From the NCBI GenBank assembly GCA_963806515.1, contig CAWDYO010000009.1:20179-84178 (forward strand): a stretch of DNA of 64,000 bases, in the 5' to 3' direction. Shown here in pieces: positions 40,788 through 63,873 of this stretch. The translations under genes were made by a program, and so were the position numbers. The notes under the pieces were generated by a model. It saw nothing but the letters and a program-made list of their open reading frames with translations. It ran no database searches and had not been told where the DNA came from. The stretch comes from an uncultured Actinomycetes bacterium (GTDB lineage: Bacteria; Actinomycetota; Thermoleophilia; Solirubrobacterales; Solirubrobacteraceae). Numbering within the stretch: the stretch's first letter is position 1; each line of letters starts with the position of its first letter.

Positions 40788-40944
40788 GTATCCGTCTTGG
40801 GGGCCGCGCGCGGGGCGATTCGCGCCTGGACGAGCGTCCAGTTGACCGCGGCCCACCAGGCGGCGTAGGTTGAACAGGCCACCGGTCGGCGCTCGGGGAC
40901 GAGAGCGACCAGCAGGCCCGGGTACGGCGAGGCGAGGACGAACG

Positions 40945-43900
40945 ATGGGCGTCGCGACGATGCAGCTGGTCCGCCGGAAGCCGCGAACGGCGGCCGTGCT
41001 CGCCGGGATCGCCCTGCTGGCGCTCGCAGCGCTCCTCATCACGAGCTCGACCGGCCGGGCCACCTCGAGCGACAACCCCTACACCCTGCCGTCCGTCGTC
41101 GACACGAACCCGGCGGCGGACATCGTCGAGACGACGATCGTCTCCAGCGAGGCCACCGTCGACCTCGGCAACGGGCTCACGGCGCACACGCAGGCCTACA
41201 ACGGCGCGATCCCCGGCCCGACGTTCCGCCTGAAGGTCGGCGACACCGTGATCGTCCACTACCGCAACGACCTCACGCACAACAGCGCCATCCACTGGCA
41301 CGGGATCGAGCTCTCCAACGCGATGGACGGCACGCCGTTCACGCAGAACCAGGTCCCGCCGGGCGAGGAGTTCCTCTACAAGTTCAAGGTCACGCGGCCC
41401 GGGGTCTACTGGTATCACCCGCACCACCACTCCTCGACGAACCAGGTCTACAAGGGCCTCTACGGGATGATCCTCGTCGAGGATCCCAACGAGGCGGCGC
41501 TCATCGCGGACGGCACGCTGCCGCCGGCCGCGCAGACGGTGCCGCTCGTGCTGAGCGACATCACCGTCTGCAAGACGCCGGGGTCCAACGACACGCAGAC
41601 GTTCCCGACCGGCGCAACGGTGCCGTGGTCGGGTCCCGGCGGCGCGCTGATGACCGTGCAGCCTGCGCCCCACCCCGTCACGATCTGCGAGACCTCGCCG
41701 ATCGACGAGGACGGCAGCCTGCGCGCCCCGTTCGCCGCCGGCGACGTGCCGAACACCCAGCAGCTCGGCCAGGGGCGCGTGAACGAAGGCCAGACCGTCC
41801 TGACGAACGGGATGAACGTCGGCGGGCGCGCAGGCTCGCCGGCCATTCCCGGCGCCCTGGATCCGGGAGCCCAGACGCTTGACGTGCAGGACGGCCAAGG
41901 CCTGCGGCTGCCGATCGTCAACTCCGCCACGACGCGCTACATGCGCCTGCGCCTGACGACGAGCACCGGCACGCAGGTCGACCTCGTGAAGGTCGGCAGC
42001 GAGGCCGGCCTGCTCGACGACGCCGTCATCGAGGGCGGCCTGCAGGGCGCGTTCGACACGCTGTACGCGCCCGGCGAGATCCTGCTGGCGCCCGGCACCC
42101 GGGCGGACGTCGTCGCGGCGATCCCGTCCGGAGCGACCGGCGTGCTGACCCTGTGGACGCAGGACTACCAGCGCGTGGGCCTGGGGACGTTCTTCTCGTT
42201 CATCCCGAGCGTGCCCGTCATGCACCTCAACGTCACCGGCCCGGCGCCGTCGACGTACACGATCGCGCCCGGAACGCCGCTGCGCTCCGCGACCGGCGAT
42301 CCGGTCGAGACGCTCGGCGCGCCGACGGACACGCTGCTTGACCCGGGGACGTTCGCGCCGGTCAAGCTCGGCATGCCGCTGCAGGACATCATCCTCGGCA
42401 TGGACGGCCTGCTGCTCGGCATCAACGGCATCTTCGGGACCCACGACGCTCCGGGCGACTACACGGTCCTGCCGCATCTCGGCTCGTCGCGCTACGCGGT
42501 CGTCGGCGACCTGCTCGAGCTCACGGTCACCAACAGCACCGCCGCGCACCACCCCTTCCACCTGCACGGCTTCTCGATCCAGCCCGTCTCGCTGACGCGG
42601 CCCGCCTTCCCGACGTACACCTGGCCCTTTAGCGAGTTCCGCGACAACGTCAACATCCCGGCGTTCTACACGCTCACGTACCGCATCCGGCTCGACGAGC
42701 GCGAGCTGCCCGACGGGACGACGACCGGCGGCGCCGCCGGCCGCTGGGTGTTTCACTGCCACATCTTCTTCCACGCGACGCTCGGGATGCTCGGCGAGCT
42801 CGTCGTCGTGCCGGCGGTCGACGGCAACGAGCGCCCGAACGTCAACAGCGACGCGACGAAGGTGGCGTCGACAGAGGGTGCGACCGCGGCGCTGACCGGC
42901 ACCTACCAGGACCCCGACGGCGATCCCGTCACGCTGGCCGCATCGCTGGGCACGGTGACCGACACGGGCGGCGGCACGTGGAGCTGGTCGCGCACCGCGA
43001 CCGCGGCCGACGTCAGCGAGGACTTCGTCTACATCACCGCGACGGACTCCGGCGGGCGCAAGAACCAGACCGTCTTCGCGTTCGACGTCACGGCGCTCCC
43101 GCCACCGCCGCCGCCCCCACCGGCGTCGCCACCGCCACCGCCTCCGCCGGGCGCCCCGACGCTCACGCTCACCCCGGCGACCGCATCCAACCCGGTCGGC
43201 GCGACCCACGCGGTCACCGCGACGCTCGCCGGCGTCTCACCCGCGAGCGGTCGCACGATCGCCTTCCGCGTCACCGGTGAGCACTCCGCGACCGGCTCGG
43301 CGACGACGTCCTCGGCGGGCACCGCGCCGTTCAGCTACGCCGGCACGGGCGTCGGCAGCGACACGATCACGGCCTGCTACGACTTCAGCGGCGACGGCGA
43401 CTGCGCCGACGCGAACGACCTCCGGGCCACCGCGAGGAAGACGTGGACGTTCGCGATCTCCGGCCTGGACCACTTCAAGTGCTACAGCGTCACGCCGACG
43501 GCGACGCGGTCTCGCGCGGTGACGCTCTCAGACCAGTTCGGACGCCGCAGCTCGGTGACCGGCGCGCGCCGGTCGCTGTGCAACCCGGTGTCGAAGAACG
43601 GCGGCCGGATCGTCAACCCGCGCGCGCACCTCACGTGCTACTCGACGCGCGACGCCACGGGCCGCTTCGCAGCGCGCCGGGTTCGCGTGAGCAACCAGTT
43701 CGGGACGCGCGAGCTGCGCGTCGTGCGGCCGGCCTCGCTGTGCCTGCCGTCGCTCAAACGGCTCGGCACCGCCCGCCCGGCAGGGGCGCTCCCGGAGCCG
43801 CAGCTCGACCACTTCCGCTGCTACGACGTCGTGGCGAGGGCCGTGAACCGCACCGTGCGGCTGCGCGACCAGTTCGGGACGAAGACGGCACGGGTCCTCC

Positions 43901-44109
43901 GCGTCACGACGCTCTGCAACCCCGTGCGCAAGGTGAAGGGCAACAGCATCTCGCGGGTCCGCCGCGCCCAAGCGCATCTCGTCTGCTACGCGATCCGCGA
44001 CACGACGGGGCGCCGGCGGGCGATCGTGCGCAACCAGTTCGAGACCGCACGCCTGCGTACCCGGCGTTCGCAGACGCTCTGCCTGCCGTCGCTCAAGAAG
44101 GCCCTGTAG
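40945..44109 (+). CDS. Multicopper oxidase with Pro-rich linker, Ig-like domain and two C-terminal Cys-containing repeats
   Basis: Cu motifs 'HWHGIE', 'YWYHPHHH', 'HPFHLHGF', 'HCHIFFHATLGM'. Signal/TM 'AAVLAGIALLALAALLI'. Poly-Pro 'PPPPPPPPASPPPPPPPG'. Two 'DHF[KR]CY...DQFG...LCNPV.K...AHL.CY..RD.TGR...V.NQF.T..L....LCLPSLK' units. Confidence 0.85.
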   Translation: MGVATMQLVRRKPRTAAVLAGIALLALAALLITSSTGRATSSDNPYTLPSVVDTNPAADIVETTIVSSEATVDLGNGLTAHTQAYNGAIPGPTFRLKVGDTVIVHYRNDLTHNSAIHWHGIELSNAMDGTPFTQNQVPPGEEFLYKFKVTRPGVYWYHPHHHSSTNQVYKGLYGMILVEDPNEAALIADGTLPPAAQTVPLVLSDITVCKTPGSNDTQTFPTGATVPWSGPGGALMTVQPAPHPVTICETSPIDEDGSLRAPFAAGDVPNTQQLGQGRVNEGQTVLTNGMNVGGRAGSPAIPGALDPGAQTLDVQDGQGLRLPIVNSATTRYMRLRLTTSTGTQVDLVKVGSEAGLLDDAVIEGGLQGAFDTLYAPGEILLAPGTRADVVAAIPSGATGVLTLWTQDYQRVGLGTFFSFIPSVPVMHLNVTGPAPSTYTIAPGTPLRSATGDPVETLGAPTDTLLDPGTFAPVKLGMPLQDIILGMDGLLLGINGIFGTHDAPGDYTVLPHLGSSRYAVVGDLLELTVTNSTAAHHPFHLHGFSIQPVSLTRPAFPTYTWPFSEFRDNVNIPAFYTLTYRIRLDERELPDGTTTGGAAGRWVFHCHIFFHATLGMLGELVVVPAVDGNERPNVNSDATKVASTEGATAALTGTYQDPDGDPVTLAASLGTVTDTGGGTWSWSRTATAADVSEDFVYITATDSGGRKNQTVFAFDVTALPPPPPPPPASPPPPPPPGAPTLTLTPATASNPVGATHAVTATLAGVSPASGRTIAFRVTGEHSATGSATTSSAGTAPFSYAGTGVGSDTITACYDFSGDGDCADANDLRATARKTWTFAISGLDHFKCYSVTPTATRSRAVTLSDQFGRRSSVTGARRSLCNPVSKNGGRIVNPRAHLTCYSTRDATGRFAARRVRVSNQFGTRELRVVRPASLCLPSLKRLGTARPAGALPEPQLDHFRCYDVVARAVNRTVRLRDQFGTKTARVLRVTTLCNPVRKVKGNSISRVRRAQAHLVCYAIRDTTGRRRAIVRNQFETARLRTRRSQTLCLPSLKKAL

Positions 44110-44131
44110 CAGGCCGATCACGCGGGGCGAG

Positions 44132-44199
44132 ACGATGTCCTTGACATCGTGCGTTCTGTGACGTTACCGTCGTGCCAGGAGGGAGACTGGTCAGTCTCC
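44132..44199 (+). promoter_or_regulatory. Candidate promoter with two palindromes upstream of the MetE-like/methyltransferase gene
   Basis: ACGATGTC-CTT-GACATCGT (44132-44150) embeds TTGACA (44141-44146). TACCGT lies 18 nt downstream (44165-44170). The second palindrome is GGAGACTG-GT-CAGTCTCC (44182-44199). Confidence 0.4.
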
Positions 44200-44225
44200 T
44201 GGGTGACGGCGAGCGAGAGGTCCCG

Positions 44226-46331
44226 ATGAACGAGCCCGACCCGGGCGCCCCCGTGGCGACCCTGGTGCACGACCACGACGCGACCGAGTCCAAGGAGTAC
44301 GTGCCGGTCGGCGTCCACCTGGTCGGCAGCGTGCCACTCGGCAGCGCAGACGAGGTCTTCCGCACCGTCGCGGGCGCCGTCGGCGACCGGCTGCGCCGCA
44401 TGCCCGATGGCGAGACGGGCCCGCGCTCAGACTGGATCCTGTGGCAGTACCCGGTCTTCAGCTCGCGGCCGCAGTTCGAGGTCGGGCCACCGAGCGAGGA
44501 CTCCTACCGCACGCTGCCGACGCTCCGCCTGCGCGGCGGCGACGCGGGGGCCGGCCTGCAGTTCGAGAACCTCGGCTTCCTCGACTCCGCGACCGCGTCC
44601 TACCGCCGCTTCGCCCAGCTCAAGCGCGACGGCGTCATCCCGCCGCGCATCCGCTTTCAGCTCTCGCTGCCGACCCCGCTCGCGCCGGTCAGCGCGTTCG
44701 TCGCGCCGGAGTACCGCGCCCTCGTCGAGCCCGCGTACGAGGCGCGGGTGCTGGAGGAGCTCGCGGCGATCCTGCGGGCGATCCCGGCCGACCAGCTCGC
44801 CGTGCAGTGGGACGCGCGCCTGGAGTTCGCGATGCTCGAAGGCATCACCGACTCGTGGTTCGGCGAGGTGCGCTCCGGCGTGCTCGAACGCCTGCTGCGC
44901 CTGAGCCGCCACATCCCGGCGGAGGTCGAGCTCGGCTTCCACCTCTGCTACGGCGACGAGACGCACGGCCACTTCATCGTGCCGCAGACGACGCGCAGGA
45001 TGGTCGACGTCGCGAACGCGCTGGCGTCGAGTCTCGGCCGGCCGCTGAACTGGCTGCACATGCCGGTTCCCGGCGACGCGGGCGACGACTACTTCGCGCC
45101 GCTCGCCGATCTGCGGCTCGGCGACGAGACCGAGCTGTATCTCGGCGTCCTGCACCTGGAGGACGGGGTCGAGGGCGCTCGCCGGCGGATCGCGACCGCC
45201 CGCGCGCACATCGACGAGTTCGGCGCGGCGAGCGACTGCGGCTGGGGCCGCGGCGGCTCGGCCGAGGTGGCGGACCTGCTCGAGCTGCATCGCGCGCTGT
45301 CGCGGCCCCTGCCGCACGACTCGGAGCTCGACGGGACCGACTTCGCGTGGCCGGAGGGCTTCGTCCGGGTCCCCGACGAGGAGTGGACGAAGGCCGACGT
45401 CCACGAGGCGGGCGTCGCGTACGACAACGTCGACGCCCACGGCTGGTACTCGAACCTCAACCGCCTCGTCGACTCGCTCGCCGCGCACCTGCGCGGTGGC
45501 GACCTGCTGATGGACTACTCCGGCGGCACGGGGATCCTGCTCGACCGCCTGCGGCTGCGGATCTTCGATCGCCGGGTCGGCGTGCTGATCGTCGACGCGG
45601 GCGCGAAGTTCCTGCGCGTCGCGCACCACAAGTACCAAGAGGACCCGCTCGTCGCGATGCGCCTCCTGCGCTTCATTCGCGAGGAGAAGCGGCTGCAGTC
45701 GCTCGACGAGGTGCTCGAGCCGGAGATCTACGAGCGCGGCGTCGACACGATCGCCGTCGCCAACGCGATCCACCTGTACCCGAACCTCGCCGAGGTCGCG
45801 GGGGTGTGGAACGACGTGCTGCGGCCCGGCGGGAAGGTGTTCGTGTGCTCGGGCAACCTGCGCAACCCGCGCGCGGCACCCGGCGAGTGGATCCTCGACG
45901 AGACCGTCTGGGTCATCAACGACATCGCCGAGGGGCTCGTCCGCAGCGACCCGAAGTACGCGAAGTACCGGCCCGTGCTCGACGACGGCGCACGCATGGC
46001 CGCCCATGCCAAGACGCGCGACCGGGTGTTCCTCAAGCCGCGCACGCTCGAGGAGTACACGCAGACGCTGACGGCGGCGGGGCTGCCCGTCACCGAGGTG
46101 AGCGAGGAGACGATCGTCGCCGACGTCACGGAGTGGTTCGAGTTCCTCGCCGCCTACCACGACGCCGTGCTGGGCTGGGTCGGCGGGACGCGCAAGCTCG
46201 ATGGCGCCGATCCGACGCCGGAGGCGGTGGAGGATCGCCTCGCGATCATGCGCGAGGCGATGGACGTCATCTTCGGCGGGCGCCGGACGTTCAACGCCTG
46301 CTGGACGTACCTCACCTGCACGAAGGGGTGA
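44226..46331 (+). CDS. Fusion protein: MetE-like (cobalamin-independent methionine-synthase-like) domain + class I SAM-dependent methyltransferase
   Basis: ATG 44226 follows GAGAGG. N-terminal half has 'FHLCYGDETHGH' (H-x-C as in the MetE zinc site). C-terminal half has 'LMDYSGGTGILLDRL' (motif I) and 'LRPGGKVFV'. Confidence 0.65.
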   Translation: MNEPDPGAPVATLVHDHDATESKEYVPVGVHLVGSVPLGSADEVFRTVAGAVGDRLRRMPDGETGPRSDWILWQYPVFSSRPQFEVGPPSEDSYRTLPTLRLRGGDAGAGLQFENLGFLDSATASYRRFAQLKRDGVIPPRIRFQLSLPTPLAPVSAFVAPEYRALVEPAYEARVLEELAAILRAIPADQLAVQWDARLEFAMLEGITDSWFGEVRSGVLERLLRLSRHIPAEVELGFHLCYGDETHGHFIVPQTTRRMVDVANALASSLGRPLNWLHMPVPGDAGDDYFAPLADLRLGDETELYLGVLHLEDGVEGARRRIATARAHIDEFGAASDCGWGRGGSAEVADLLELHRALSRPLPHDSELDGTDFAWPEGFVRVPDEEWTKADVHEAGVAYDNVDAHGWYSNLNRLVDSLAAHLRGGDLLMDYSGGTGILLDRLRLRIFDRRVGVLIVDAGAKFLRVAHHKYQEDPLVAMRLLRFIREEKRLQSLDEVLEPEIYERGVDTIAVANAIHLYPNLAEVAGVWNDVLRPGGKVFVCSGNLRNPRAAPGEWILDETVWVINDIAEGLVRSDPKYAKYRPVLDDGARMAAHAKTRDRVFLKPRTLEEYTQTLTAAGLPVTEVSEETIVADVTEWFEFLAAYHDAVLGWVGGTRKLDGADPTPEAVEDRLAIMREAMDVIFGGRRTFNACWTYLTCTKG

Positions 46332-46334
46332 CGT

Positions 46335-48728
46335 TCAGCGGGGTACGTCGAGCTCGAAGACCGCGCGCAGTCGCGTGCCCTGCGCGTCGCGCGCGACGAC
46401 GGCGATCGTGTTCTCGCCCTTTATGAGCCGGATCGGCGCGGTGAACTCGCCGCGCCCGCGCCGGCGGGTGGGGAGCCGTTGCGGTCGCGCGCGGCCGGCG
46501 GCGGCGACGACCACGATCTCGTCGATCGTCGCCGGGTCCTGGATCGGGGTGTATACGCCGACGGTCAGCGTGCTCGGGCCGGCGCGCTCGGGGCTCGGGG
46601 AGATCCGCACGAAGCCGACGCCGACGATCTGGGCTGTGTAGGCGGGCGGCTGGCCGGGGAAGCGCTCGAAGTTGACGAAGAGCTCGGGACCCGGGACCTC
46701 GAGCTCGAGCGGGACCTCGACGGCGTCGGCAGCGCGCTGGACGAGCGCGGTCGCGCGCCAGCGGCCGTCGAAGGCGAGGTTCGCGCCGGTCGCTTGGTAC
46801 GTGCCGTCTGCCGCGGGCTTGAGCGCGAGCGTCGTGGCGGCGACGCCGGGGTCGTCGAGCGGCTCGAAGCGCAGCCGGACGCGCGCGCCGCGGACGGGCT
46901 CGCCGGAGTCGTAGTCGACGACGCGCGCGCCGAAGCTGTTGGCGCCGGGCTCGGCCGAGGCGGTCGTGAGCGTGACGCGGGTCGTCGTCGCGAAGTCCGC
47001 GCCGGTCGCCCGCAGGCCTTGCGCTGCGACGTCGCCGCCGGCAGGCGGAGCGATCGTTCCGAGTACCGCCGCGAGCGCGATCGCGACTGCGGCGAGCAGC
47101 AGCTCGGCGCGCGACGTGCGCCGCAGCGGGTCGCGCTCCTCGGCCGCCCGCGAGCTGGGCGCAGCCGGCCCGTGATCCTCAGCCGCCCGCGAGGTGCGCG
47201 CAGCCGGCCCGCCATCTTCGACCGGCCGCGCGACGCCCGCCGCCGGCCCGCCATCTTCGACCGGCCGCGCGTCGCCCGCGGCCCGCTCGCGATCCGCCGC
47301 GGCCCAAGCTCGGCGCCTGCGCGCGGCGATCACGACGATGAGCGCTAGCAGCGCGGCTTTCGCGACGATCGCGCGGCCGTAGCCGGTGGCCCACAGGTCG
47401 CCGAACGCGCCGAGCTCGTCGATCGCGCGCAGGGTGCCGGCCACCGCGACGGCGACGATCGCCGCTAGCGCCACGGTCGCGAAGCGGCGCACCGCGACCG
47501 CCCTGGCGGGCGACGATGCGCCGCGCAGGCCAAGGACCAGCGAGGCCAGGCCTCCCGCCCAGACCCCCGCGGCGGCGAAGTGCAGCCACTGCGAGCCGAC
47601 CGCGATCGCTCCCGGCCAGGTGCCCGCGGCGGCGTGCCCGGCCGCGACGTGCGCCGCCATCGCCGCACCCGTCGCGGTCGCGACGGCGGCGAGCGCGAAC
47701 GCGACCCGGCGCGGGGGCCGAGCGTCCACGCGCCAGCGCCATGCGAGGGCGAGCGCGAGGCCCGCGGCGGCGACAGCGAGCGCCCGCTGGACGAGCGCTC
47801 GACCGACGTCGGAGTCCAGCAGCTCGCCGAGAGACGCGCCGGCGCTTCGCCGCTGGGCCTCGAGCAGCCCGGCGAGCCCGATCGCGGCGAGCACCCAGCC
47901 GGCGGCGGCGAGCCGCAGCTCGCCGCCCGCGGCGCCCGCGAAGCCCGCCACGCCGGCGACGGCCGCGCCCAGCAGGAGGACCAGACCCGCGATGAGCAGG
48001 AAGCGAGCGAGCATCTCGAACCCCGAGCCGCCCGGGCTCGTGCTCGTCGTGCGCGCCGCGGGGCCGGTCGGCGCCTCGCCGACGCCGAACGCGAAGGACC
48101 CCGACGTCGCGTGCCCGTCGACCGCCGACAGGCTGCGCCACGTCACGGTGTAGACGCCGCGCGGCAACGTGCGCAGCGCGACCTGCAACGCCGCCGGTTC
48201 ACCGGGGACGGCGCCCGGCGAGCCGTTCTGCTGCGCCGCGCCGCGGCGATCGAGCACGCGCACCTGAGACAGCGCCGGCTCGACGCGCTCGGAGAACGTC
48301 AGCCGGACGGCGGTCGGCGTCGCGCCCAGCGCCGCGCCGACAGCCGGGTCGGCGCGGATCAGCCCCGCGTGCCCGCTCGCCTCCCGCGCGAGCGGGCCGG
48401 CGAGCACCGCGGCCATCGCGAAGGCCGCCAGCGCCGCGCGGTGAACCCCTCGTCGCTCGCGCGCCGCGGCGATCCCGCCCGCTCCAGCCGCGCGACAGGC
48501 GGCTGCCGCACCGTGCACCGCGCGCGCCGCCGCGGACCAGTCCGCTCCAGCCGCGCGACAGGCGGCTGCCGCACCGTGCACCGCGCGCGCCGCCGCGGAC
48601 CAGTCCGCTCCAGCCGCGCGACAGGCGGCTGCCGCACCGTGCACCGCGCGCGCCGCCGCGGACCGGTCCGCTCCAGCCGCGCGGCTGGCCGCCGCCGTGC
48701 CGTCCACCGCCGCCGCCGGCGACCCCAT
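46335..48728 (-). CDS. CopC-CopD fusion copper-resistance membrane protein (YcnJ-like) with C-terminal Ig-like domains; N-terminus uncertain
   Basis: CopC 'HAGLIRADPAVGA..TPTAVRLTFSE....VRVLD..G.......LPRGVYTVTWRSLSAVDGHATSG.FAFGV'. This is followed by about 8 TM helices (CopD). ATG 48728 overlaps the upstream stop (ATGA). ATG 48416 is an alternative start. Confidence 0.75.
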   Translation of the reverse strand: MGSPAAAVDGTAAASRAAGADRSAAARAVHGAAAACRAAGADWSAAARAVHGAAAACRAAGADWSAAARAVHGAAAACRAAGAGGIAAARERRGVHRAALAAFAMAAVLAGPLAREASGHAGLIRADPAVGAALGATPTAVRLTFSERVEPALSQVRVLDRRGAAQQNGSPGAVPGEPAALQVALRTLPRGVYTVTWRSLSAVDGHATSGSFAFGVGEAPTGPAARTTSTSPGGSGFEMLARFLLIAGLVLLLGAAVAGVAGFAGAAGGELRLAAAGWVLAAIGLAGLLEAQRRSAGASLGELLDSDVGRALVQRALAVAAAGLALALAWRWRVDARPPRRVAFALAAVATATGAAMAAHVAAGHAAAGTWPGAIAVGSQWLHFAAAGVWAGGLASLVLGLRGASSPARAVAVRRFATVALAAIVAVAVAGTLRAIDELGAFGDLWATGYGRAIVAKAALLALIVVIAARRRRAWAAADRERAAGDARPVEDGGPAAGVARPVEDGGPAARTSRAAEDHGPAAPSSRAAEERDPLRRTSRAELLLAAVAIALAAVLGTIAPPAGGDVAAQGLRATGADFATTTRVTLTTASAEPGANSFGARVVDYDSGEPVRGARVRLRFEPLDDPGVAATTLALKPAADGTYQATGANLAFDGRWRATALVQRAADAVEVPLELEVPGPELFVNFERFPGQPPAYTAQIVGVGFVRISPSPERAGPSTLTVGVYTPIQDPATIDEIVVVAAAGRARPQRLPTRRRGRGEFTAPIRLIKGENTIAVVARDAQGTRLRAVFELDVPR
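48461..48725. repeat. 63-bp tandem repeat, 3 near-identical copies plus degenerate flanking copies
   Basis: GCTCCAGCCGCGCGACAGGCGGCTGCCGCACCGTGCACCGCGCGCGCCGCCGCGGACCAGTCC starts at 48481, 48544 and 48607. A degenerate copy starts at 48670. Confidence 0.9.
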
Positions 48729-49342
48729 CAGCCCTTGCGCGCGGCGCGCAGCGCGACGGCGACCGCAGCGACGATCGCGAGCGCCGCGGCGACGAGCGCG
48801 GCGATCGCGAGCTTCTGCGCGTCGTCGGCCGCGTCCTCGCTTCGGGCGGCGCGCGCCAGCGCCCGATCGAGCTTGGCGTCGAGCTCGCTGCCGGACGGCT
48901 CCACGAACGGAAACTGGATCGCGCCCGTCCCCTCGACGCAATCGAACGTGTCATCCGAGCACGTCGCGGCGACGTCGACGCTCCGGCCGCGCAGCGTCCC
49001 TGTCACGCGGAATGCGTAGATGCCGGGCCGGGTCGGCACGATCGTCGCGACATAGGCGCCGCGCTCGCCGGCGGGCTCGAGCGCCAGCTCGCGGCGGGCC
49101 TCGCCGAAGCTCACCTCCACCCGCAGCGACGCTCGCGAATCGTCGACGGGCTCACCCGCCGCGTCCCGCGCGCCGACCTCGACGGCGTTGCGCACGCCGC
49201 TGTAGGCGGGCTCGTCGGCCCAGCCGAGCTCGACGGTGTAGGGACCCGCGCTCTTGCGCACGTGGCCCGCGGCCGCCGGCGCGAGCGCCAGCGCCGCCAC
49301 GAGCCCGGCGACCAAGGCTCCGCTCCGGCCCCGCTGACGCAT
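48728..49342 (-). CDS. Secreted, C-terminally anchored protein with N-terminal His after the predicted signal cleavage (YcnI-like architecture, tentative)
   Basis: ATG 49342 is preceded by GGAG. 'MRQRGRSGALVAGLVAALALAPAAAG|HV..'. C-terminal TM 'LAIAALVAAALAIVAAVAVAL'. It lies upstream of and is coupled to the CopCD gene. Confidence 0.6.
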   Translation of the reverse strand: MRQRGRSGALVAGLVAALALAPAAAGHVRKSAGPYTVELGWADEPAYSGVRNAVEVGARDAAGEPVDDSRASLRVEVSFGEARRELALEPAGERGAYVATIVPTRPGIYAFRVTGTLRGRSVDVAATCSDDTFDCVEGTGAIQFPFVEPSGSELDAKLDRALARAARSEDAADDAQKLAIAALVAAALAIVAAVAVALRAARKG

Positions 49343-57657: not shown

Positions 57658-60600
57658 CTAGTACTCGTCATCACGATACGCCGGATTGCTCCCCTTGTCA
57701 GCCACCGGCGACGTCGCCTTGGGGGTCTCGCGCCGGAAGCGGATGAGCTTGCCCAGGTCCTGCGTGCAGGCGTCGTCCTTCTGCACGACGGTCACCTCGA
57801 GCCCGTCCGGCCGCCACGCGACGTCGCAGGCCTGCGTCCCGGTCGCGATCGGCTGGACGAGGCGCAGGTCCGTGAAGCCCGCGAAGACGACCTCGAAGCG
57901 GTCGGTGTCGAGGTTCGTGATCGCGGCGATGCGCCTGCCGTGCACCGAGTAGACGGCGAGCAGCACGCCCTTGCCGGGCTTGTTGATCGGCGTCGCGGTG
58001 CGCCCGGCCCACTTCAGGGGGTCGATCGTGAACGCCGTCTTCGTGCGGTACTGGCGCACGGCGAAGACCGACGGGTTGTCGCGCCGGCGCGCCTGGACGA
58101 GCACGGCCTTGCCGTCCGGACGCCACGAGACGCGCCCGTCGAGGTTCCAGCCGTCGTCGGGCAGGCACAGGCGGCCGAGGTCGGCGAACTCGAGGCGTCC
58201 GAAGCACAGATCGCCGTCGCCCTCCTCGCGGCGGATCATCGCCAGCGTGTTGCCGTCGGACGCGACCGTCGGGCGCACGAGCGTGTCCCCGCCCGCGTAG
58301 ACGGTGCGGTAGTCGGCGTCCTTGCCGTCGTCGGCGAGGATGATCCGCGAGCCCGAGCGGTAGACGACCTGGCTTCCGCCCGGCAGGTAGGACGGCTCCA
58401 TCGCCGAGCCCTGCGGCTGGGGCAGGCGGTAGAGCTCCTTGCCGCCGACGGGGTTGTAGACGTGGACGACCGGGCTCTCCTGGACCGCCACCGGCGCCGG
58501 CCCGCCGGACGCGTTCACCACCACGACGTCGCCCTCCTCTGCCTTCTCCCCCACGGCCGGCGAGACGCCGAGCACCGTGCCCGCGTCCGTCGTCGAGATC
58601 CGCAGCTGGATGTCCGGCTTGAGATCGAGCTTCTCGAGGTCAGCCTCGTACTCGTCAAGCGGCTTGTCCTTGAAGTCCGGGATGACGACGTCGTCGGCCT
58701 TCTCGGCCTTCGCCTTGGCGTCCGCGGCCGCCTCCTTCTTCGCCTCGGCCTTCTCCTTGGCCGTCGGCGGCGGCTTGCGCAGGAAGACCCGCACCGCGGT
58801 GCCGCGGTCGACCTCCAGGCCAGCGTCGGGGATCTGGCTGCGCACGACGTAGTTGTCGGGCGCGTCGGCGGGCTGCGTCTCGCCGAGCTCGAGGCCGTCG
58901 TCGCGCAATCGCTTGTCGGCCTCGACGCGCGTCTGACCCTTCAGCCGCGGGACCTCGACCTTCGTCGCGCCGGCGGCGACGACGATGCTCACCGTCGACT
59001 CCTTGTCGACCTTCGTTCCGGCGCTCGGCGTCTGCTCGACGACGCTGCCGGGCGTCGCGTCCGGGTCCTCGCGACGCTCGACGGGCTGGCTGAGCTTGAG
59101 GTCGCGCTCGCGCAGGAGCTTTTCGGCGGCGAACGCGTCCGACGCGCCGACGAGCGACGGAACGTTCGTCTTCTGCGGCCAGAGCAGGTAGATGAGGATC
59201 GCCGCGAGCGCGAGCAGCAGCATGAGGCCGATGAGCCACAGCGGGACGACGGGCTTCTGGCGGTAGACGACCTGCGTCCCCGTGATCGGCGCGCCCGGCG
59301 TCGTCCCGCCGCGCAGCTTCGACAGCAGCGCCGGATCGGGCCGCAGCTTCTGGCGAAGCTTCTGCATCGGGTTGAAGACCGGCAGCTTCGGCGGCCTGCC
59401 GGTCTTCAGCGGCGCCGCCGCCTGCTTGCCCTGCTGCTTGGCCTTCGCCGCGAGCTTCGCCTTCTGGGCGGCGAGCCCGCCCGGCTCGGCCTCCTCGACG
59501 ACCGGCTCCGTCGCGACGACGTCGACGCCGATGCGGTGCTCCGACGTGCGGCCGACGAACTTCGGGATGCGCGGCTTGACCGTCAGCGTGTCGGCGCCGA
59601 CCTCGCCGGCCTCGATCGTGAGCTTGCCCAGCGTGAAGCGTCGCTTCAGCTTGCCGCTGTCGTCCATCGCGGCCGGCCAGAGCATCTGCTCGGCGTTGCC
59701 GTCGTTGCGAACGGCGGTGCGGTAGCGCGCCTTGAAGCGCCCCGACTTGATCGCCGGCACGACCTCGATCGACCACGCCTGGAACGGCAGCACCTCGAAG
59801 TGGGCGATGGCCCGCGCCGCGAGCGTCCCGCCCGTGCGCGACAGCGCGACGAGCTCGAACGTCCAGATCCCGGCGGTCGAGCGGTAGTCGCGCGGCGGCG
59901 CGATGTCGATCCGCAGCTCGAGCTCGGAGTCGCCGCGACCCGAGCCGAGCGGGACGAGGAACGCGGCGGCCGGCGTGACGACCGCCCAGTTCTCGGGCAG
60001 GCCGAGCACGGCGAGGTCGTAGTTGTCGACGATCTGGCTCTCGTTGCGGACGGTCGCGCGGAACGTCAGCATCGAGCCGGCGTCGACCGCCGGCACGCCG
60101 GCCGCGCCGATGACGGGATCGACCGGCGCGAGGACGAGCGACGCGTCGCCGGTCGGCGGCGGGCTCTCGGGGATGCCGACGAGCTGCTCCGGGAAGTCCG
60201 CGCCCGGAGGCGGCGGCGGCGGTGCATCGATCACCTGCGCGCCCGCGGTCGGGCCGACTCCCTGCTCGGCGGGCGCGGTGCCGACGCCGGGCGCCGCGCC
60301 GACCGGCGGCGCCGACCCCGCGTCGGCGGACCCGGCTGCGGCGCCTGCATCGGCAGCCGCACGTGCCTCGGCCAGATCGCGCGCGTCGGCTGCCTCGCTG
60401 GCGTCGCGCGCCTCCGCCGCTCCGGGAGCGCCGGATGCGCCGCGCAGCCCGGGGCCGGCCTCACCGTCGCTCGGCGGTGGCGGCTCACCCATCCCGGCGC
60501 CACTCGTGGCGGAGCGCGCTACCTCCTGCTCGCCCTCACCCTCGATCGTCGTCGCGTCGTCGTCGTCGTCCGCGTCACCGGGGACCGCCGAAAGCATCGA

Positions 60601-60699
60601 CGTCGGCGCCCACGCCAGGTACTCGCCGCACTGCTCGCAGAAGTCGCGTCCGGGGTCGTTGCGCTTCCCGCAGCTGTGACAGACGATGCCCTCGCTCAC
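57658..60699 (-). CDS. Bitopic membrane protein: N-terminal zinc ribbon, acidic/Pro-rich region, two Ig-like modules | TM | 3 x PASTA, TolB-like beta-propeller
   Basis: CxxC-x10-CxxC 'CHSCGKRNDPGRDFCEQCG'. 'FRATVRNESQIVDNYDLAVLGLPENW' and 'YRTAVRNDGNAE'. TM 'VVPLWLIGLMLLLALAAILIYLLW' (aa 484-507). PASTA-like 'VPSLVG.S...A...L....L......R.D...PGSVVEQTPSAG..V....TVSIVV' three times (aa 511-730). C-terminal 'GG.QVVYRS..RI...D.....', 'SDGNTLAMIR', 'WRPDGKAVLV', 'WRPDGLEV'. The GTG start overlaps the upstream stop (GTGA). Confidence 0.8.
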   Translation of the reverse strand: MSEGIVCHSCGKRNDPGRDFCEQCGEYLAWAPTSMLSAVPGDADDDDDATTIEGEGEQEVARSATSGAGMGEPPPPSDGEAGPGLRGASGAPGAAEARDASEAADARDLAEARAAADAGAAAGSADAGSAPPVGAAPGVGTAPAEQGVGPTAGAQVIDAPPPPPPGADFPEQLVGIPESPPPTGDASLVLAPVDPVIGAAGVPAVDAGSMLTFRATVRNESQIVDNYDLAVLGLPENWAVVTPAAAFLVPLGSGRGDSELELRIDIAPPRDYRSTAGIWTFELVALSRTGGTLAARAIAHFEVLPFQAWSIEVVPAIKSGRFKARYRTAVRNDGNAEQMLWPAAMDDSGKLKRRFTLGKLTIEAGEVGADTLTVKPRIPKFVGRTSEHRIGVDVVATEPVVEEAEPGGLAAQKAKLAAKAKQQGKQAAAPLKTGRPPKLPVFNPMQKLRQKLRPDPALLSKLRGGTTPGAPITGTQVVYRQKPVVPLWLIGLMLLLALAAILIYLLWPQKTNVPSLVGASDAFAAEKLLRERDLKLSQPVERREDPDATPGSVVEQTPSAGTKVDKESTVSIVVAAGATKVEVPRLKGQTRVEADKRLRDDGLELGETQPADAPDNYVVRSQIPDAGLEVDRGTAVRVFLRKPPPTAKEKAEAKKEAAADAKAKAEKADDVVIPDFKDKPLDEYEADLEKLDLKPDIQLRISTTDAGTVLGVSPAVGEKAEEGDVVVVNASGGPAPVAVQESPVVHVYNPVGGKELYRLPQPQGSAMEPSYLPGGSQVVYRSGSRIILADDGKDADYRTVYAGGDTLVRPTVASDGNTLAMIRREEGDGDLCFGRLEFADLGRLCLPDDGWNLDGRVSWRPDGKAVLVQARRRDNPSVFAVRQYRTKTAFTIDPLKWAGRTATPINKPGKGVLLAVYSVHGRRIAAITNLDTDRFEVVFAGFTDLRLVQPIATGTQACDVAWRPDGLEVTVVQKDDACTQDLGKLIRFRRETPKATSPVADKGSNPAYRDDEY

Positions 60700-61442
60700 G
60701 GATCGTCTCCGCTGGGCGCCGGCGGCGGCTCGGGCGGATCGTCGAAGGGCGGTCGCAGCTCGCGCGGCGTGATGTCGCCCGTCGAGGCGGTCGGCACGTC
60801 GGGCATCGTCTTGACCTGCTTGCCCTTGCGCACGCGCAGCTTGTAGTGCGCGTGGACAGGCTTCCAGCTCTCGATGCAGCGCGCGACCGCCATCTGCGTC
60901 TCGGGCGGCAGCGACTGCTCGGCGACGACGTCGAAGGACGCCGTCGCGACCGGCGGCTGCTGCTCGTCGACGCTCTCGGAGACGACGACGCCGCCGTGGT
61001 CGTTGACGCGCATGACGACGTCCGGGAAGAAGAGGCTCAGCGCGAGCTCGAGGCCGGCGCGCGTCCCGCGCAGCCGCGCGAGCTCGCCGGCGCGGCGCAC
61101 GGCCTCGCGGCGCTGCTTGGCGGGCAGCGCCTCGACGTCGTCGACGCCGAGCCAGGTGGCCAGGCCGGCGAGGGCGTGCTCGGGTGCGAGGTCGACGTCG
61201 AGGTGGGCGGGCAGCGAGTCGAGCGTCGCGACGATCGGGTCGAGGACCTCCTCGAGCGCGTGCAGGAAGCGGATCGCGAACGGCGGCGGCTGGTCGTGGC
61301 GCGCGTTGAAGTCGCGCCGGTAGATGTCCGGGACGCCCTTGCGCAGGTGCTCGCGCGCGGACACCGTCGAGGGAGCCTCACGCGGAGGCCCCTCGGGTCG
61401 CGAACCGTTGACGGCGAGCTGGAACGTGGCCACGCGGCTCAC
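60696..61442 (-). CDS. Phage tail protein I-like baseplate component (P2 gpI / Afp12-like)
   Basis: 248 aa. 'LPDIYR-type' N-terminus 'GVPDIYRRDFNARHDQPPPFAIRFLHALEEVLDPIVATLDSLPAHLD...LATWLGV....LP..QRREAVRRAGELARLRGTRAGLELAL'. GTG 61442 overlaps the baseplate J stop. Confidence 0.7.
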   Translation of the reverse strand: MSRVATFQLAVNGSRPEGPPREAPSTVSAREHLRKGVPDIYRRDFNARHDQPPPFAIRFLHALEEVLDPIVATLDSLPAHLDVDLAPEHALAGLATWLGVDDVEALPAKQRREAVRRAGELARLRGTRAGLELALSLFFPDVVMRVNDHGGVVVSESVDEQQPPVATASFDVVAEQSLPPETQMAVARCIESWKPVHAHYKLRVRKGKQVKTMPDVPTASTGDITPRELRPPFDDPPEPPPAPSGDDP

Positions 61443-63445
61443 GTCCCGCGCATCGTCGCCTTGACGATGTGCACGCCGGAGGCGATCGTCTCGTCCGGCT
61501 CGAGCACGATGTGCGAGCCGGCCGGCTCGGGCGACTGCTTGCCGGTGACGAGATCCGCCCGGTACATCCGCAGCAGGCGCACGTACTCGACGCCCGCGAT
61601 CTGGTGCACGACGCCGTAGAGCTCGCCCTGGTTGAGCGTGCGGCCGAACTCCCAGCCCGACCCCAGGTCGCCCGGCGTCCCGCCGACGAGCGGGTTGAGG
61701 AAGCGGTAGAGCTCGCGCAGCGTCTCCTCGCGGATGCGGACGAGGTCCGCGAGCGGCTCGGTCTGCAGCTCGACGACGACGCTCACCCCGCGCAAGCGGA
61801 CCGGCGCGACGTGGACCGTGGCCCCGAGCAGGCGGCGCTCGTCGAGGTGGGTCGCGACCTCGTCGAGCAGCTCGCGCGTGGGCTGCAGCTCGTCGAAGTC
61901 CAGCCGGCGGTCGGCGGGGTGCAGGTAGGGCAGGATCCGGACGGACACCCCGTTGCCCTCGTCGGGCGGCACGCAGACGGCGCGCGCCACGCGCGGCGAC
62001 GCCTCGCCGGCGAGGTACTCGAAGTCCTCCGACGTGACCGCCCGGTGGCGTGAGCGCAGCTCCATCGCACCGCGCACGCGCACCTTGTCGAGACCCTCGG
62101 GATCGACGCCGCCGCGCGCGCCGGCCGGGTTGGTCACCGAGGCGATCCCCGGCGGCCCGGACTTCAGGACCGTCAGCGTTCCGGGCAGGACGTTGCCGCG
62201 CAGGCCGCCGCCGGTGCGATAGCGCGACATGCGCAGCGAGGCGCCCTTGGCCGGCACCGCGCCGTAGTAGCGCCAGTCGCCGTCGGCCTGGCGGACGGCG
62301 GGGCCGAGCTCGATCGTCCCGTGCGCCGGATCGGTGACGTAGACGCGGTCGTCGGGGCCGCACTCGTTGAACGCCTCCTGCGGACCCCAGCGCTCCCAGT
62401 CGCCGGTCTGCGGGTCGCGCACCTCGAGCCACTCGTCGTCGGATGGCGCGAGCATCGGCGGGCGCAGGACGGTGAACGACTGGCCGGGTGTGCCGTCGCT
62501 CTCGCCGAGGACCTCGTTGTCGACGTGCTCGGCGTGCTGGCAGGTGAGGATCGCGCCGACGGGCTCGCCGGTGATCGTGAAGACCTCGGGCGGGCGCTCG
62601 TATGCCGCGCCGCCGGCCTCCTCGGGCGTGGCGACCCGGCAGCGCAGCCAGTGCAGGCGGTGGCCGCCGAACGGGACGCGCTCGCTGTCGCCGACACACT
62701 CGAGCAAGAGGTCGCCCGAACCGAAGTTGAAGCCGCCGGTCGTGTCCTCGAGGACGGTGATCGGCTCCCAGACGAGGTCGCCGCCGGTCTGCTCGCCGGC
62801 GGACATCTCCCAGCGCAGCGGCGGGCGGCGCGGGTCGACACCGGCGCCGCGCGCGGGCTCGGCCTCGACGGTGATGCGCATGAGCAGGCGCGAGAGCGGC
62901 TCGTCGAAGCCGAGATGGATCGCGTCGCTGGGCACGGGGACCGCGGAGAACGCCGCGCGGTCGGCGCCGATCGGACGCGCGACGCCCGCGTCGACGGCGA
63001 TGTTGCGCCGCTCGCCGTCGCGGTCGACGACGTAGGCCGACGGCGCCAGCGGCTCGATCGTCCGGGTCTCGGCGACCTCGAAGACGACCGACTCCTCGTA
63101 GGCCGTGCGCACGGTCCCGACCTCGGTCTCGCCGGCCGCGAGCGTGATCGGCTCCTCGGGCGTCGCGGCGAGCATGAAGCGCACGCGCGTGCGGGCCGGG
63201 GTCGCCGGGCTCATCGGAACGCCGAGCAGCTCGAGCAGGCGGACGTAGATCTTGTCCGGGACCCGGTTGAGCCGGTACGTGGTCATCTCGGTCATCCACG
63301 CGAACAGCTCGATCAGCGTGATGCCGGGGTCGGACACGTTGTGCTCGGTCCACTCCGGGCAGCGGCGGGCGATGCGCGTCCGCGCCTCGGACACGAGCTC
63401 CTGGAAGCCGCGGTCGTCGAGGTTGATCTCCGGCAGCTTCACCAC
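61439..63445 (-). CDS. Baseplate J-like protein (gp6/Afp11-type 'putative baseplate assembly protein')
   Basis: 668 aa. 'INLDDRGFQELVSEARTRIARRCPEWTEHNVSDPGITLIELFAWMTEMTTYRLNRVPDKIYVRLLELLGV'. The start overlaps the gp25 stop by 7 nt. Confidence 0.8.
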   Translation of the reverse strand: MVKLPEINLDDRGFQELVSEARTRIARRCPEWTEHNVSDPGITLIELFAWMTEMTTYRLNRVPDKIYVRLLELLGVPMSPATPARTRVRFMLAATPEEPITLAAGETEVGTVRTAYEESVVFEVAETRTIEPLAPSAYVVDRDGERRNIAVDAGVARPIGADRAAFSAVPVPSDAIHLGFDEPLSRLLMRITVEAEPARGAGVDPRRPPLRWEMSAGEQTGGDLVWEPITVLEDTTGGFNFGSGDLLLECVGDSERVPFGGHRLHWLRCRVATPEEAGGAAYERPPEVFTITGEPVGAILTCQHAEHVDNEVLGESDGTPGQSFTVLRPPMLAPSDDEWLEVRDPQTGDWERWGPQEAFNECGPDDRVYVTDPAHGTIELGPAVRQADGDWRYYGAVPAKGASLRMSRYRTGGGLRGNVLPGTLTVLKSGPPGIASVTNPAGARGGVDPEGLDKVRVRGAMELRSRHRAVTSEDFEYLAGEASPRVARAVCVPPDEGNGVSVRILPYLHPADRRLDFDELQPTRELLDEVATHLDERRLLGATVHVAPVRLRGVSVVVELQTEPLADLVRIREETLRELYRFLNPLVGGTPGDLGSGWEFGRTLNQGELYGVVHQIAGVEYVRLLRMYRADLVTGKQSPEPAGSHIVLEPDETIASGVHIVKATMRGT

Positions 63446-63873
63446 GAGACGACCTCAGCGTCCAGGATCGTCTCGAGGCCCTCCTCCTCGGGAATGACGT
63501 AGAAGGGATGGACGAGGTTGCGCACGCCGGGGACCTCCGGGATCTCGTACGTCAGGACGATGTCCAGCCGCCCCTCGTGGCGCCCGCTCAGATCGAAGTC
63601 GACGGCGACGACCGATGCGCGCGGCTCCCAGCGCTCGATCGCCTCGCGCACGGCGCTCTCGATCGCGCCGAACGCGGACGCGTCGAGGACGTCGAAGATG
63701 TGGTCGTGCACGGCGCAACCGAACTCGGGGCGCATCGGGCGCTCGCCGGGGGCCGTCGCGAGGATGATCGAGATCGCCTGGGCGATGTCGGTCTCGCCCG
63801 AGACGAGCGTGATCGCGCCGCGCTGGTCGACGCTGAGGGGGAACGCGAGACCGGAACCGAGATTCGAGTTCAT
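63439..63873 (-). CDS. GPW/gp25-family baseplate wedge protein
   Basis: 144 aa. 'GSGLAFPLSVDQRGAI......DIAQAISIILAT.PGERPMRPEFGCAVHDHIFD'. Confidence 0.8.
   Translation of the reverse strand: MNSNLGSGLAFPLSVDQRGAITLVSGETDIAQAISIILATAPGERPMRPEFGCAVHDHIFDVLDASAFGAIESAVREAIERWEPRASVVAVDFDLSGRHEGRLDIVLTYEIPEVPGVRNLVHPFYVIPEEEGLETILDAEVVSW

Follow-up and report, generated by a model that had tools for sequence, protein, structure and literature searches.

A probable CisA-type membrane adaptor with PASTA and propeller domains in contractile injection loci of Thermoleophilia

Introduction

In the closest characterised system, that of Streptomyces coelicolor, the contractile injection system (CIS) works together with CisA (SCO4242; Casu et al., eLife 2025), a bitopic membrane protein with its N-terminus inside the cell, whose gene occupies the slot after Cis12 (PMC12237407). 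CisA is not found in purified particles; contraction in situ and stress-induced cell death both require it, and it is predicted to contact Cis11 (PMC12237407). The Streptomyces CIS with CisA acts inside its producer, its particles floating freely until firing; that the outer domain of CisA senses stress is only speculated on by its authors, and the cytoplasmic region is described merely as largely unstructured, the word 'zinc' being absent from the text (PMC12237407). Here we analyse a stretch of 64,000 nucleotides (the window) from an uncultured Actinomycetes bacterium of the Solirubrobacteraceae (assembly GCA_963806515.1, contig CAWDYO010000009.1, positions 20,179 to 84,178), in which the corresponding slot after a Cis12-like gene of the Tail_P2_I family is taken by an open reading frame (ORF) of 1013 aa. 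The G+C content of the window is about 72%, and the nearest relatives of its proteins come from Solirubrobacteraceae and from other metagenome-assembled genomes (MAGs) of Thermoleophilia.

Judging from sequence, structure models and the likeness to CisA, we put at roughly two in three (0.65) the probability that this gene encodes a CisA-type membrane adaptor of a cytoplasmic, fibre-less CIS, with PASTA and propeller domains serving as a cell-wall sensor; the adaptor, as we call the protein below, probably couples the machine in the cell to cell-wall-binding domains outside. The evidence that was directly established consists of its domain architecture and predicted topology, its operon coupling, the synteny of the family with baseplate genes and a zinc ribbon that it has in common with CisA. 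By its sequence the adaptor is a larger, previously undescribed and widespread variant of the CisA-type protein; since the concept of CisA has been in print since 2025, it does not form a new category.

Results

An N-terminal zinc ribbon is common to the adaptor and CisA

The N-terminus of CisA, read together with the rest of residues 1–310 from the AlphaFold3 file of eLife supplement 14 (PMC12237407), is MTTQNCAECGTPAEPGQSFCDACGAVLSW, and that of the window protein is MSEGIVCHSCGKRNDPGRDFCEQCGEYLAW. Both, as well as the ORFs that follow Cis12 in six Streptomycetaceae loci, carry the ribbon motif M-x(2-5)-CxxCG-x(8-9)-FCxxCG-xx-L-x-W, and an alignment of nine ribbon sequences contains ten invariant columns (M1, C7, C10, G11, F20, C21, C24, G25, L28 and W30). 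A hidden Markov model (HMM) built solely from 45 ribbons of the window protein's family matched CisA with an E value of 2.2e-13 and recovered exactly one ORF per Streptomycetaceae locus, in all six cases the one after Cis12 (E 1e-10 to 1e-22 among 914 ORFs; next match 0.08). Among the 12,435 ORFs of 83 related loci the same model found only the adaptor and five weaker ribbons belonging to a downstream FHA-domain protein. Since the N-terminal zinc ribbon is common to both proteins, the relation to CisA appears closer than the analogy put forward in the original prediction, which had seen in the window protein a possible, architecturally different counterpart of the Streptomyces membrane accessory protein. 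That wording holds for the Ig-like, PASTA and propeller domains, none of which is in CisA, and fails for the plan of ribbon, disordered linker and transmembrane (TM) helix, which the two have in common. In the literature, a search for 'contractile injection' together with 'zinc ribbon' returned nothing that joins them.

In the six Streptomycetaceae loci, which were found through a plasmid collection, the ORF after Cis12 encodes a zinc ribbon, a disordered linker, a second ribbon, a TM helix and a C-terminal domain of about 160 aa, and two of the six products bear the PGAP label 'zinc ribbon domain-containing protein'. Two Cys4 ribbons are likewise present in S. coelicolor CisA (aa 1–31 and, next to the membrane, aa 223–240) and in the homologues from loci L084 and L086–L089 (L numbers are our own for the loci compared). 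The CIS genes around CisA and the window protein are also related: the Baseplate_J protein (BaseJ) of the window has about 40% identity (38–41%) to homologues on megaplasmids of Streptomyces, Kitasatospora and Streptantibioticus, and the best 120 matches to BaseJ were all from Thermoleophilia. Like the gene of CisA, that of the adaptor lies directly after the Cis12/Tail_P2_I gene; the proteins themselves are both bitopic with the N-terminus inside and the C-terminus outside (by prediction for the window protein), and both have a long disordered cytoplasmic linker rich in Ala, Pro, Gly and Asp as well as an outer C-terminal part of a ligand-binding type.

The differences are considerable. With 1013 aa against 468 aa, the window protein has over twice the length of CisA, and it is not a reciprocal-best-hit orthologue of CisA. 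It has no second, juxtamembrane ribbon, its outer part is made up of three PASTA domains followed by a TolB-like propeller where CisA has a solute-binding-like domain of about 160 aa (aa 310–468), and it carries in the cytoplasm a tandem Ig-like module that Kitasatospora has as a separate downstream gene. On the Kitasatospora plasmid, a cisA-like gene (L085:8491-10479) is followed by a gene for two Ig-like domains, a TM helix and a C-terminal domain (L085:10531-11961; Ig-module HMM E 9.5e-29), so that the window protein joins in one chain what Streptomycetaceae can split over two. Neither the ribbon HMM nor the Ig-module HMM found the adaptor in one Deinococcus and one cyanobacterial CIS locus, and by sequence the ribbon-type adaptor is so far known only from Actinomycetota.

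Domain architecture and predicted topology

The modules given in the original prediction, that is zinc ribbon, acidic spacer, two Ig-like modules, TM helix at aa 484–507, three PASTA domains and a TolB-like propeller, were all recovered within a few residues (Table 1). Generic Pfam ribbon models match the N-terminus below threshold (3e-4); the cytoplasmic part contains only four cysteines, all of them in the N-terminal ribbon, which leaves none for a second one beside the membrane. The Ig-like module resembles tandem Ig proteins in a Foldseek search of the Protein Data Bank (PDB). One TM helix was found, flanked by charges of +8/−1 on its N side and +7/−8 on its C side; because of these charges, the Cys4 ribbon on the N side, and the PASTA domains and four invariant propeller cysteines on the C side, a single-pass protein with its N-terminus in and its C-terminus out is predicted. 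The AlphaFold2 (AF2) model, built on 24 homologues, has a mean predicted local distance difference test (pLDDT) score of 71.

Profile and fold searches agree on the outer part. PF03793 matches three PASTA repeats (E 3.2e-27; 94.7 bits against a cut-off of 23.2 bits), the same region resembles PrkC and PknB PASTA structures in the PDB (3py9, 3m9g and 5e12; Foldseek E 4e-11 to 7e-10), and the NCBIfam model PknB_PASTA_kin aligns to aa 488–667, covering the TM helix and PASTA domains. The adaptor therefore resembles PASTA kinases of the PknB/PrkC/Stk1 type in its TM helix with tandem PASTA domains on the outer side, and differs from these and from PBP2x-type transpeptidases in having a ribbon, linker and Ig-like module in the cytoplasm instead of a kinase or transpeptidase domain: Pfam detected neither, and NF033483 scored 99 bits against its cut-off of 450. 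It further departs from the PASTA kinases in the propeller that follows the PASTA domains and in a separate receptor kinase lacking PASTA that is encoded nearby. The propeller matches TolB by fold (Foldseek E 2.5e-11, TM-score about 0.5 on the target) and, over the propeller blades only, by the NCBIfam model TIGR02800 (5e-6; 25.6 bits against an equivalog cut-off of 343 bits). The likeness to TolB of the Tol-Pal system is one of PD40-type fold only, since the adaptor lacks the N-terminal domain of TolB and its host is an actinobacterium; no Tol-Pal genes were seen in the window.

The domains of the AF2 model are globular (Ig, PASTA and propeller) and none has a fibre-like fold; for none of them did the viral fold library BFVD return a tail-fibre or baseplate-like match. 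A literature search combining 'contractile injection' with PASTA gave nothing relevant, in line with the earlier remark that PASTA domains were not known from a CIS-encoded protein. A search for extracellular CIS (eCIS) with Thermoleophilia returned no papers, and one for contractile injection with Solirubrobacter returned ecology papers only.

Family-wide conservation and synteny with baseplate genes

About 60 full-length homologues of the adaptor were collected, all from Solirubrobacterales-type sources; that of Conexibacter sp. W3-3-2 (L001) is 45% identical and again follows the gene order VgrG-gp25-J-P2_I. Mean identity to the window protein across the family is highest in the first Ig-like domain (79%), the second PASTA domain (75%), the zinc ribbon (74%) and the second Ig-like domain (68%), and falls to 59% in the propeller, 50% in the third PASTA domain and 33% in the acidic linker. 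The best-conserved parts, the ribbon and the first Ig-like domain, are thus cytoplasmic, which fits a conserved intracellular partner. An exhaustive search with the cytoplasmic module (aa 180–480) retrieved 1491 representative proteins, 290 of them at E<1e-10; in most of the 1491 the module lies some 80–150 residues from the N-terminus and a TM helix follows about 200 residues further on. Among 63 diverse module-bearing members, Pfam identified PASTA domains in 51 and PD40 repeats in 25.

Synteny was scanned in one genome per species with an alignment of 12 module sequences, which confirmed 167 places; the 80 loci retained all come from Thermoleophilia-type MAGs of Solirubrobacterales, Conexibacteraceae, Gaiellaceae, Miltoncostaeaceae or unclassified Actinomycetota, their modules are 32–45% identical, and their six-frame ORFs were searched with the CIS proteins of the window and of locus L002. 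BaseJ and P2_I lie upstream of the adaptor gene in 77 of the 80 loci, and the ribbon was found in equally many. In 68 of 76 loci no more than 150 nt, and mostly only 0–10 nt, separate the end of the P2_I match from the start of the ribbon; PASTA domains are present in all 80 loci and the propeller in 74. The gene is thus clearly syntenic with CIS baseplate genes among its relatives, so that the lack of synteny which the original prediction had named as a possible refutation does not apply.

Several loci depart from the arrangement in the window. In L006–L010, L015, L018, L019 and about 20 more, BaseJ, P2_I and the adaptor gene adjoin one another and a divergent eCIS_core gene lies about 0.7 kb upstream of BaseJ; within the upstream sequence examined there, about 7 kb, no gp25 or VgrG gene was found. 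In L034, L040, L043, L047, L054 and L055 the P2_I and adaptor genes are parted by an insert of 3–6 kb, which in L047 holds the gene of a Big_3_5 Ig-like protein (6585-7895). Conexibacter additionally encodes, on the strand opposite its CIS operon (L001:16359-22077, minus strand), a paralogous TM-PASTA-propeller protein of 873 aa, an M50-like protein and a 636-aa protein, upstream of a pair of PAAR and kinase genes. Two aligned homologues, P0011 and one other, look like fusions of P2_I with the PASTA gene; we rejected this as evidence of interaction, because in P0011 the genuine segments are separated and followed by frameshifted nonsense rich in Arg, which marks it as an assembly artefact. Frameshifts have broken or falsely fused further metagenome homologues as well (P0056–P0061 and L003, in addition to P0011; the adaptor gene of L003, P0059, is broken), and their odd lengths and domain lists are artefactual.

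The operon continues beyond the adaptor gene

The adaptor ORF opens with GTG, the most upstream possible start in its frame, and this codon overlaps the stop codon of the Tail_P2_I gene as GTGA; the translational coupling to what had been called a gpI-like gene is therefore seen directly in the sequence. The gene upstream of gp25 runs past the window end; in L002, whose adaptor protein is 82% identical, that position is taken by VgrG, ahead of which lie a tube/LysM gene and a gp19-like tube gene. The operon had been thought to end with the adaptor gene, and it does not: it continues into an eCIS_core (DUF4157) gene on the same strand, and a terminator scan found no terminator-like site between the two. 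An eCIS_core gene likewise follows the adaptor gene in L002 and L003. A promoter-like site at 57701-57673 lies within the 3′ end of the adaptor gene. The eCIS_core protein stands alone, with an HEVRH motif and no toxin domain; its probable role is that of an adaptor for effector loading, comparable to Sle2 of S. lividans. DUF4157 proteins interact with spike proteins of a Streptomyces CIS and partner effectors (PMC13277306).

Table 1. Features of the window: modules of the adaptor gene, genes of the CIS operon, and neighbouring genes.
Feature	Position (nt)	Strand	Basis or remark
Adaptor gene, whole (1013-aa bitopic CisA-like adaptor)	57658..60699	(-)	ORF call, GTG start
N-terminal zinc ribbon (aa 4-33; C7, C10, C21, C24; ...FCxxCGxxLxW)	60601..60690	(-)	only N-terminal cysteines; motif near-invariant in homologues
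Acidic Ala/Pro/Gly-rich disordered linker (aa 34-183)	60151..60600	(-)	net charge -21; pLDDT <50; length varies among homologues
Tandem Ig-like beta-sandwiches (aa 186-304, 309-395; motif RNxSxIVDNYDL ... PPR)	59515..60144	(-)	AF2 pLDDT ~80-88
Basic, partly helical juxtamembrane linker (aa 401-483, net +12)	59251..59499	(-)	charge count, AF2 model
Single TM helix (aa 484-507)	59179..59250	(-)	sole Kyte-Doolittle window >1.6; AF2 helix aa 487-505
Three PASTA domains (approx. aa 510-575, 578-641, 671-733), Lys/Ala linker ahead of third	58501..59172	(-)	Pfam PF03793
TolB-like beta-propeller (aa 737-1008), four invariant Cys (832, 845, 958, 978)	57676..58491	(-)	pLDDT ~90
Tail_P2_I / Cis12-like baseplate wedge gene	60696..61442	(-)	Pfam 8.3e-12; GTGA overlap at both ends
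Baseplate_J / Cis11-like gene	61439..63445	(-)	Pfam 1.5e-17; GTGA-coupled to Tail_P2_I gene
gp25-like baseplate gene	63442..63873	(-)	Pfam 2e-22; upstream of Baseplate_J
eCIS_core (DUF4157) gene, 143 aa	57046..57477	(-)	Pfam E 1.3e-26; 180 nt downstream of adaptor gene
PAAR-like gene, 115 aa	51562-51909	(+)	convergent to CIS operon
Bitopic Ser/Thr kinase gene, 667 aa	51915-53918	(+)	convergent to CIS operon, after PAAR-like gene
Multicopper oxidase, 1087 aa, Ig-like + DUF7450 repeats	40846-44109	(+)	
CopC-CopD-YtkA fusion	46335-48941	(-)	

Kinase, PAAR and FHA-protease neighbours

The Ser/Thr kinase encoded convergently to the operon consists of a kinase domain (aa 6–253), a Pro-rich linker, a TM helix near aa 386–408 and an outer domain of about 260 aa without a recognised fold and without PASTA. 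The window thus pairs a PASTA protein that has no kinase domain with a receptor kinase that has no PASTA. The PAAR and kinase genes also stand near the CIS in Conexibacter (L001), in L002 and in many other loci, and because of this recurrence the pair appears to be associated with the CIS. A gene annotated as an ABC substrate-binding protein, located after the cisA-like gene of Streptomyces sp. NBC_01426 (L088:10384-12813), matches the window kinase over about 500 residues (E 9e-35), and the Deinococcus CIS locus (L090) borders an FHA-domain Ser/Thr kinase.

A membrane protein that combines a zinc ribbon, an FHA domain and a Peptidase_M50 (site-2 protease) domain is encoded immediately behind the adaptor gene in 77 of the 83 related loci (for example L076:12196-13836 and L053:12547-14187); the window, L002 and L003 have the eCIS_core gene at this position and lack a gene for such a protein altogether. 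FHA domains recognise phospho-threonine, and the substrates of site-2 proteases are typically single-pass proteins with the N-terminus inside. Since such a topology is predicted for the adaptor, the FHA domain reads phospho-threonine, and the kinase and PAAR genes recur a few kb away, these neighbours suggest a possible control of the CIS by phosphorylation and proteolysis, recalling the regulation of the type VI secretion system (T6SS). Farther off, a copper-handling block (40846-48941) is unrelated to the CIS.

Discussion

The bitopic adaptor proposed in the original prediction, as a tether of the CIS or as a coupling of its firing to the state of the wall, is supported by every computational test made on sequence and model. 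From CisA and from the roles of PASTA domains in PknB-type kinases we infer that it binds the baseplate and peptidoglycan and controls firing. In the mechanism that we propose, the N-terminal ribbon on its flexible acidic linker of about 150 aa, the tandem Ig-like module, or both would grip the periphery of the baseplate wedge (Cis11/Cis12), and the TM helix would fix the adaptor in the cytoplasmic membrane with its N-terminus inside. In the wall space, the PASTA domains together with the TolB-like propeller, stabilised by disulfides, would bind peptidoglycan-derived ligands or wall-associated partners, and the ligand state or the location of this outer part would set whether and where free CIS particles are brought to the membrane, baseplate first, and fire.

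Several observations weigh against a CisA-type adaptor with a wall sensor. The CisA-like slot protein of S. clavuligerus is similar to the window protein only in the ribbon (BLASTP, 22 residues, E 1e-4), and zinc ribbons of the general PF13240-like type are common, so that the ribbon match is a short-motif argument. The C-terminal domain of CisA has a fold different from those of PASTA and propeller, and CisA is without an Ig-like module. Many PASTA domains do not bind muropeptides. Moreover, we infer the cytoplasmic mode of the Thermoleophilia CIS only from the missing fibre gene in the slot and from its likeness to the Streptomyces system.

The slot itself raises the question of a true tail fibre, that is, a receptor-binding protein of a released extracellular CIS whose PASTA and propeller domains would recognise the wall of a target bacterium. 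Afp13 and Pvc13 also occupy the position after a gpI-like gene, presumably with the same attachment point at the baseplate periphery, and both PASTA and propeller domains occur in phage proteins (viral fold library matches, rank 1 and ranks 12–13). Unlike those fibres, however, the adaptor is a predicted integral membrane protein, with a strongly hydrophobic TM helix in mid-protein and positive-inside flanks; its model contains no fibre-like fold, BFVD yielded no fibre matches, and its N-terminal ribbon recurs in the membrane protein CisA. A membrane protein without a fibre fold would bind the producer's own envelope from inside and not a target cell. A housekeeping wall protein that lies beside the CIS by chance would account for the resemblance of the TM-PASTA part to PknB-type kinases and for the paralogous TM-PASTA-propeller protein outside the CIS operon of Conexibacter, but hardly for a start codon overlapping the P2_I stop, for an adjacency kept in 68 of 76 genomes at merely 32–45% module identity, or for a CisA-type ribbon that, apart from the five weaker ribbons of the FHA protein, was confined to slot proteins in the ORFs searched. 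Both of these readings are strongly disfavoured by the translational coupling, the conserved gene order, the TM helix and a model devoid of fibre-like folds, and we regard each as very improbable.

Two further possibilities keep the protein functionally tied to the CIS. It may be a static anchor that permanently holds the baseplate at sites of wall synthesis, as in a T6SS, with the CIS firing outward into neighbours and without stress-gated killing of the producer; a bitopic plan with one face to the baseplate and one to the wall is equally expected for such a dock, genes for PAAR and for a DUF4157 effector adaptor adjoin, and septa and poles are known sites of the PASTA domains of PknB-type kinases. 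The T6SS, with its TssJLM complex and the threonine-phosphorylation pathway of PpkA and Fha1, is likewise a contractile machine anchored to the membrane of its producer, and the related loci have Ser/Thr kinase and FHA genes; yet the adaptor is a single bitopic protein as opposed to a trans-envelope complex, no sequence or fold relationship to the T6SS membrane complex was detected, and no outer component of a trans-wall channel was seen. The disordered linker of 150 aa suggests capture rather than rigid docking, and we consider a permanent dock unlikely, also because the closest characterised system, the Streptomyces CIS with CisA, acts in its producer with particles that are free until firing (PMC12237407). 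To a receptor whose ectodomain senses wall damage and whose ribbon and Ig-like part is freed by intramembrane cleavage, gated by Ser/Thr phosphorylation and FHA, so as to regulate assembly, expression or firing of the CIS, we give similarly little credence. In its favour, the FHA-M50 gene is the next one in 77 of the 83 related loci, the predicted topology of the adaptor (one pass, N-terminus in) is that typical of site-2 protease substrates, and a receptor Ser/Thr kinase recurs nearby; against it, the window, L002 and L003 are without the FHA-M50 gene and nothing points to cleavage sites in the adaptor. The latter reading is compatible with that of a CisA-type adaptor, since an adaptor can also be a protease substrate.

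An extension of the CisA-type adaptor, which we hold only tentatively and consider rather unlikely, is that the CIS of Thermoleophilia may be wired to an envelope-signalling cascade, in which the adaptor would sense peptidoglycan damage or synthesis, and the kinase and the FHA-site-2 protease would act by phosphorylation-gated intramembrane proteolysis, licensing docking and firing. If true, contractile machines would here be regulated by a logic new to them, and the firing signal of cytoplasmic CIS could be assigned to a defined class of ligands.

What triggers the firing of cytoplasmic CIS is an open question in the field. Throughout one class of actinobacteria, the outer part of a CisA-related adaptor is made of domains with a known ligand class, which for PASTA domains is that of peptidoglycan precursors and fragments, and the question thereby becomes concrete: do muropeptides or wall-active antibiotics act as a trigger of recruitment or firing? 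The common N-terminal ribbon would also point to the part of CisA that is most likely to dock on the baseplate. The adaptor family thus adds a defined type of sensor and a common putative docking motif, making the firing signal experimentally approachable.

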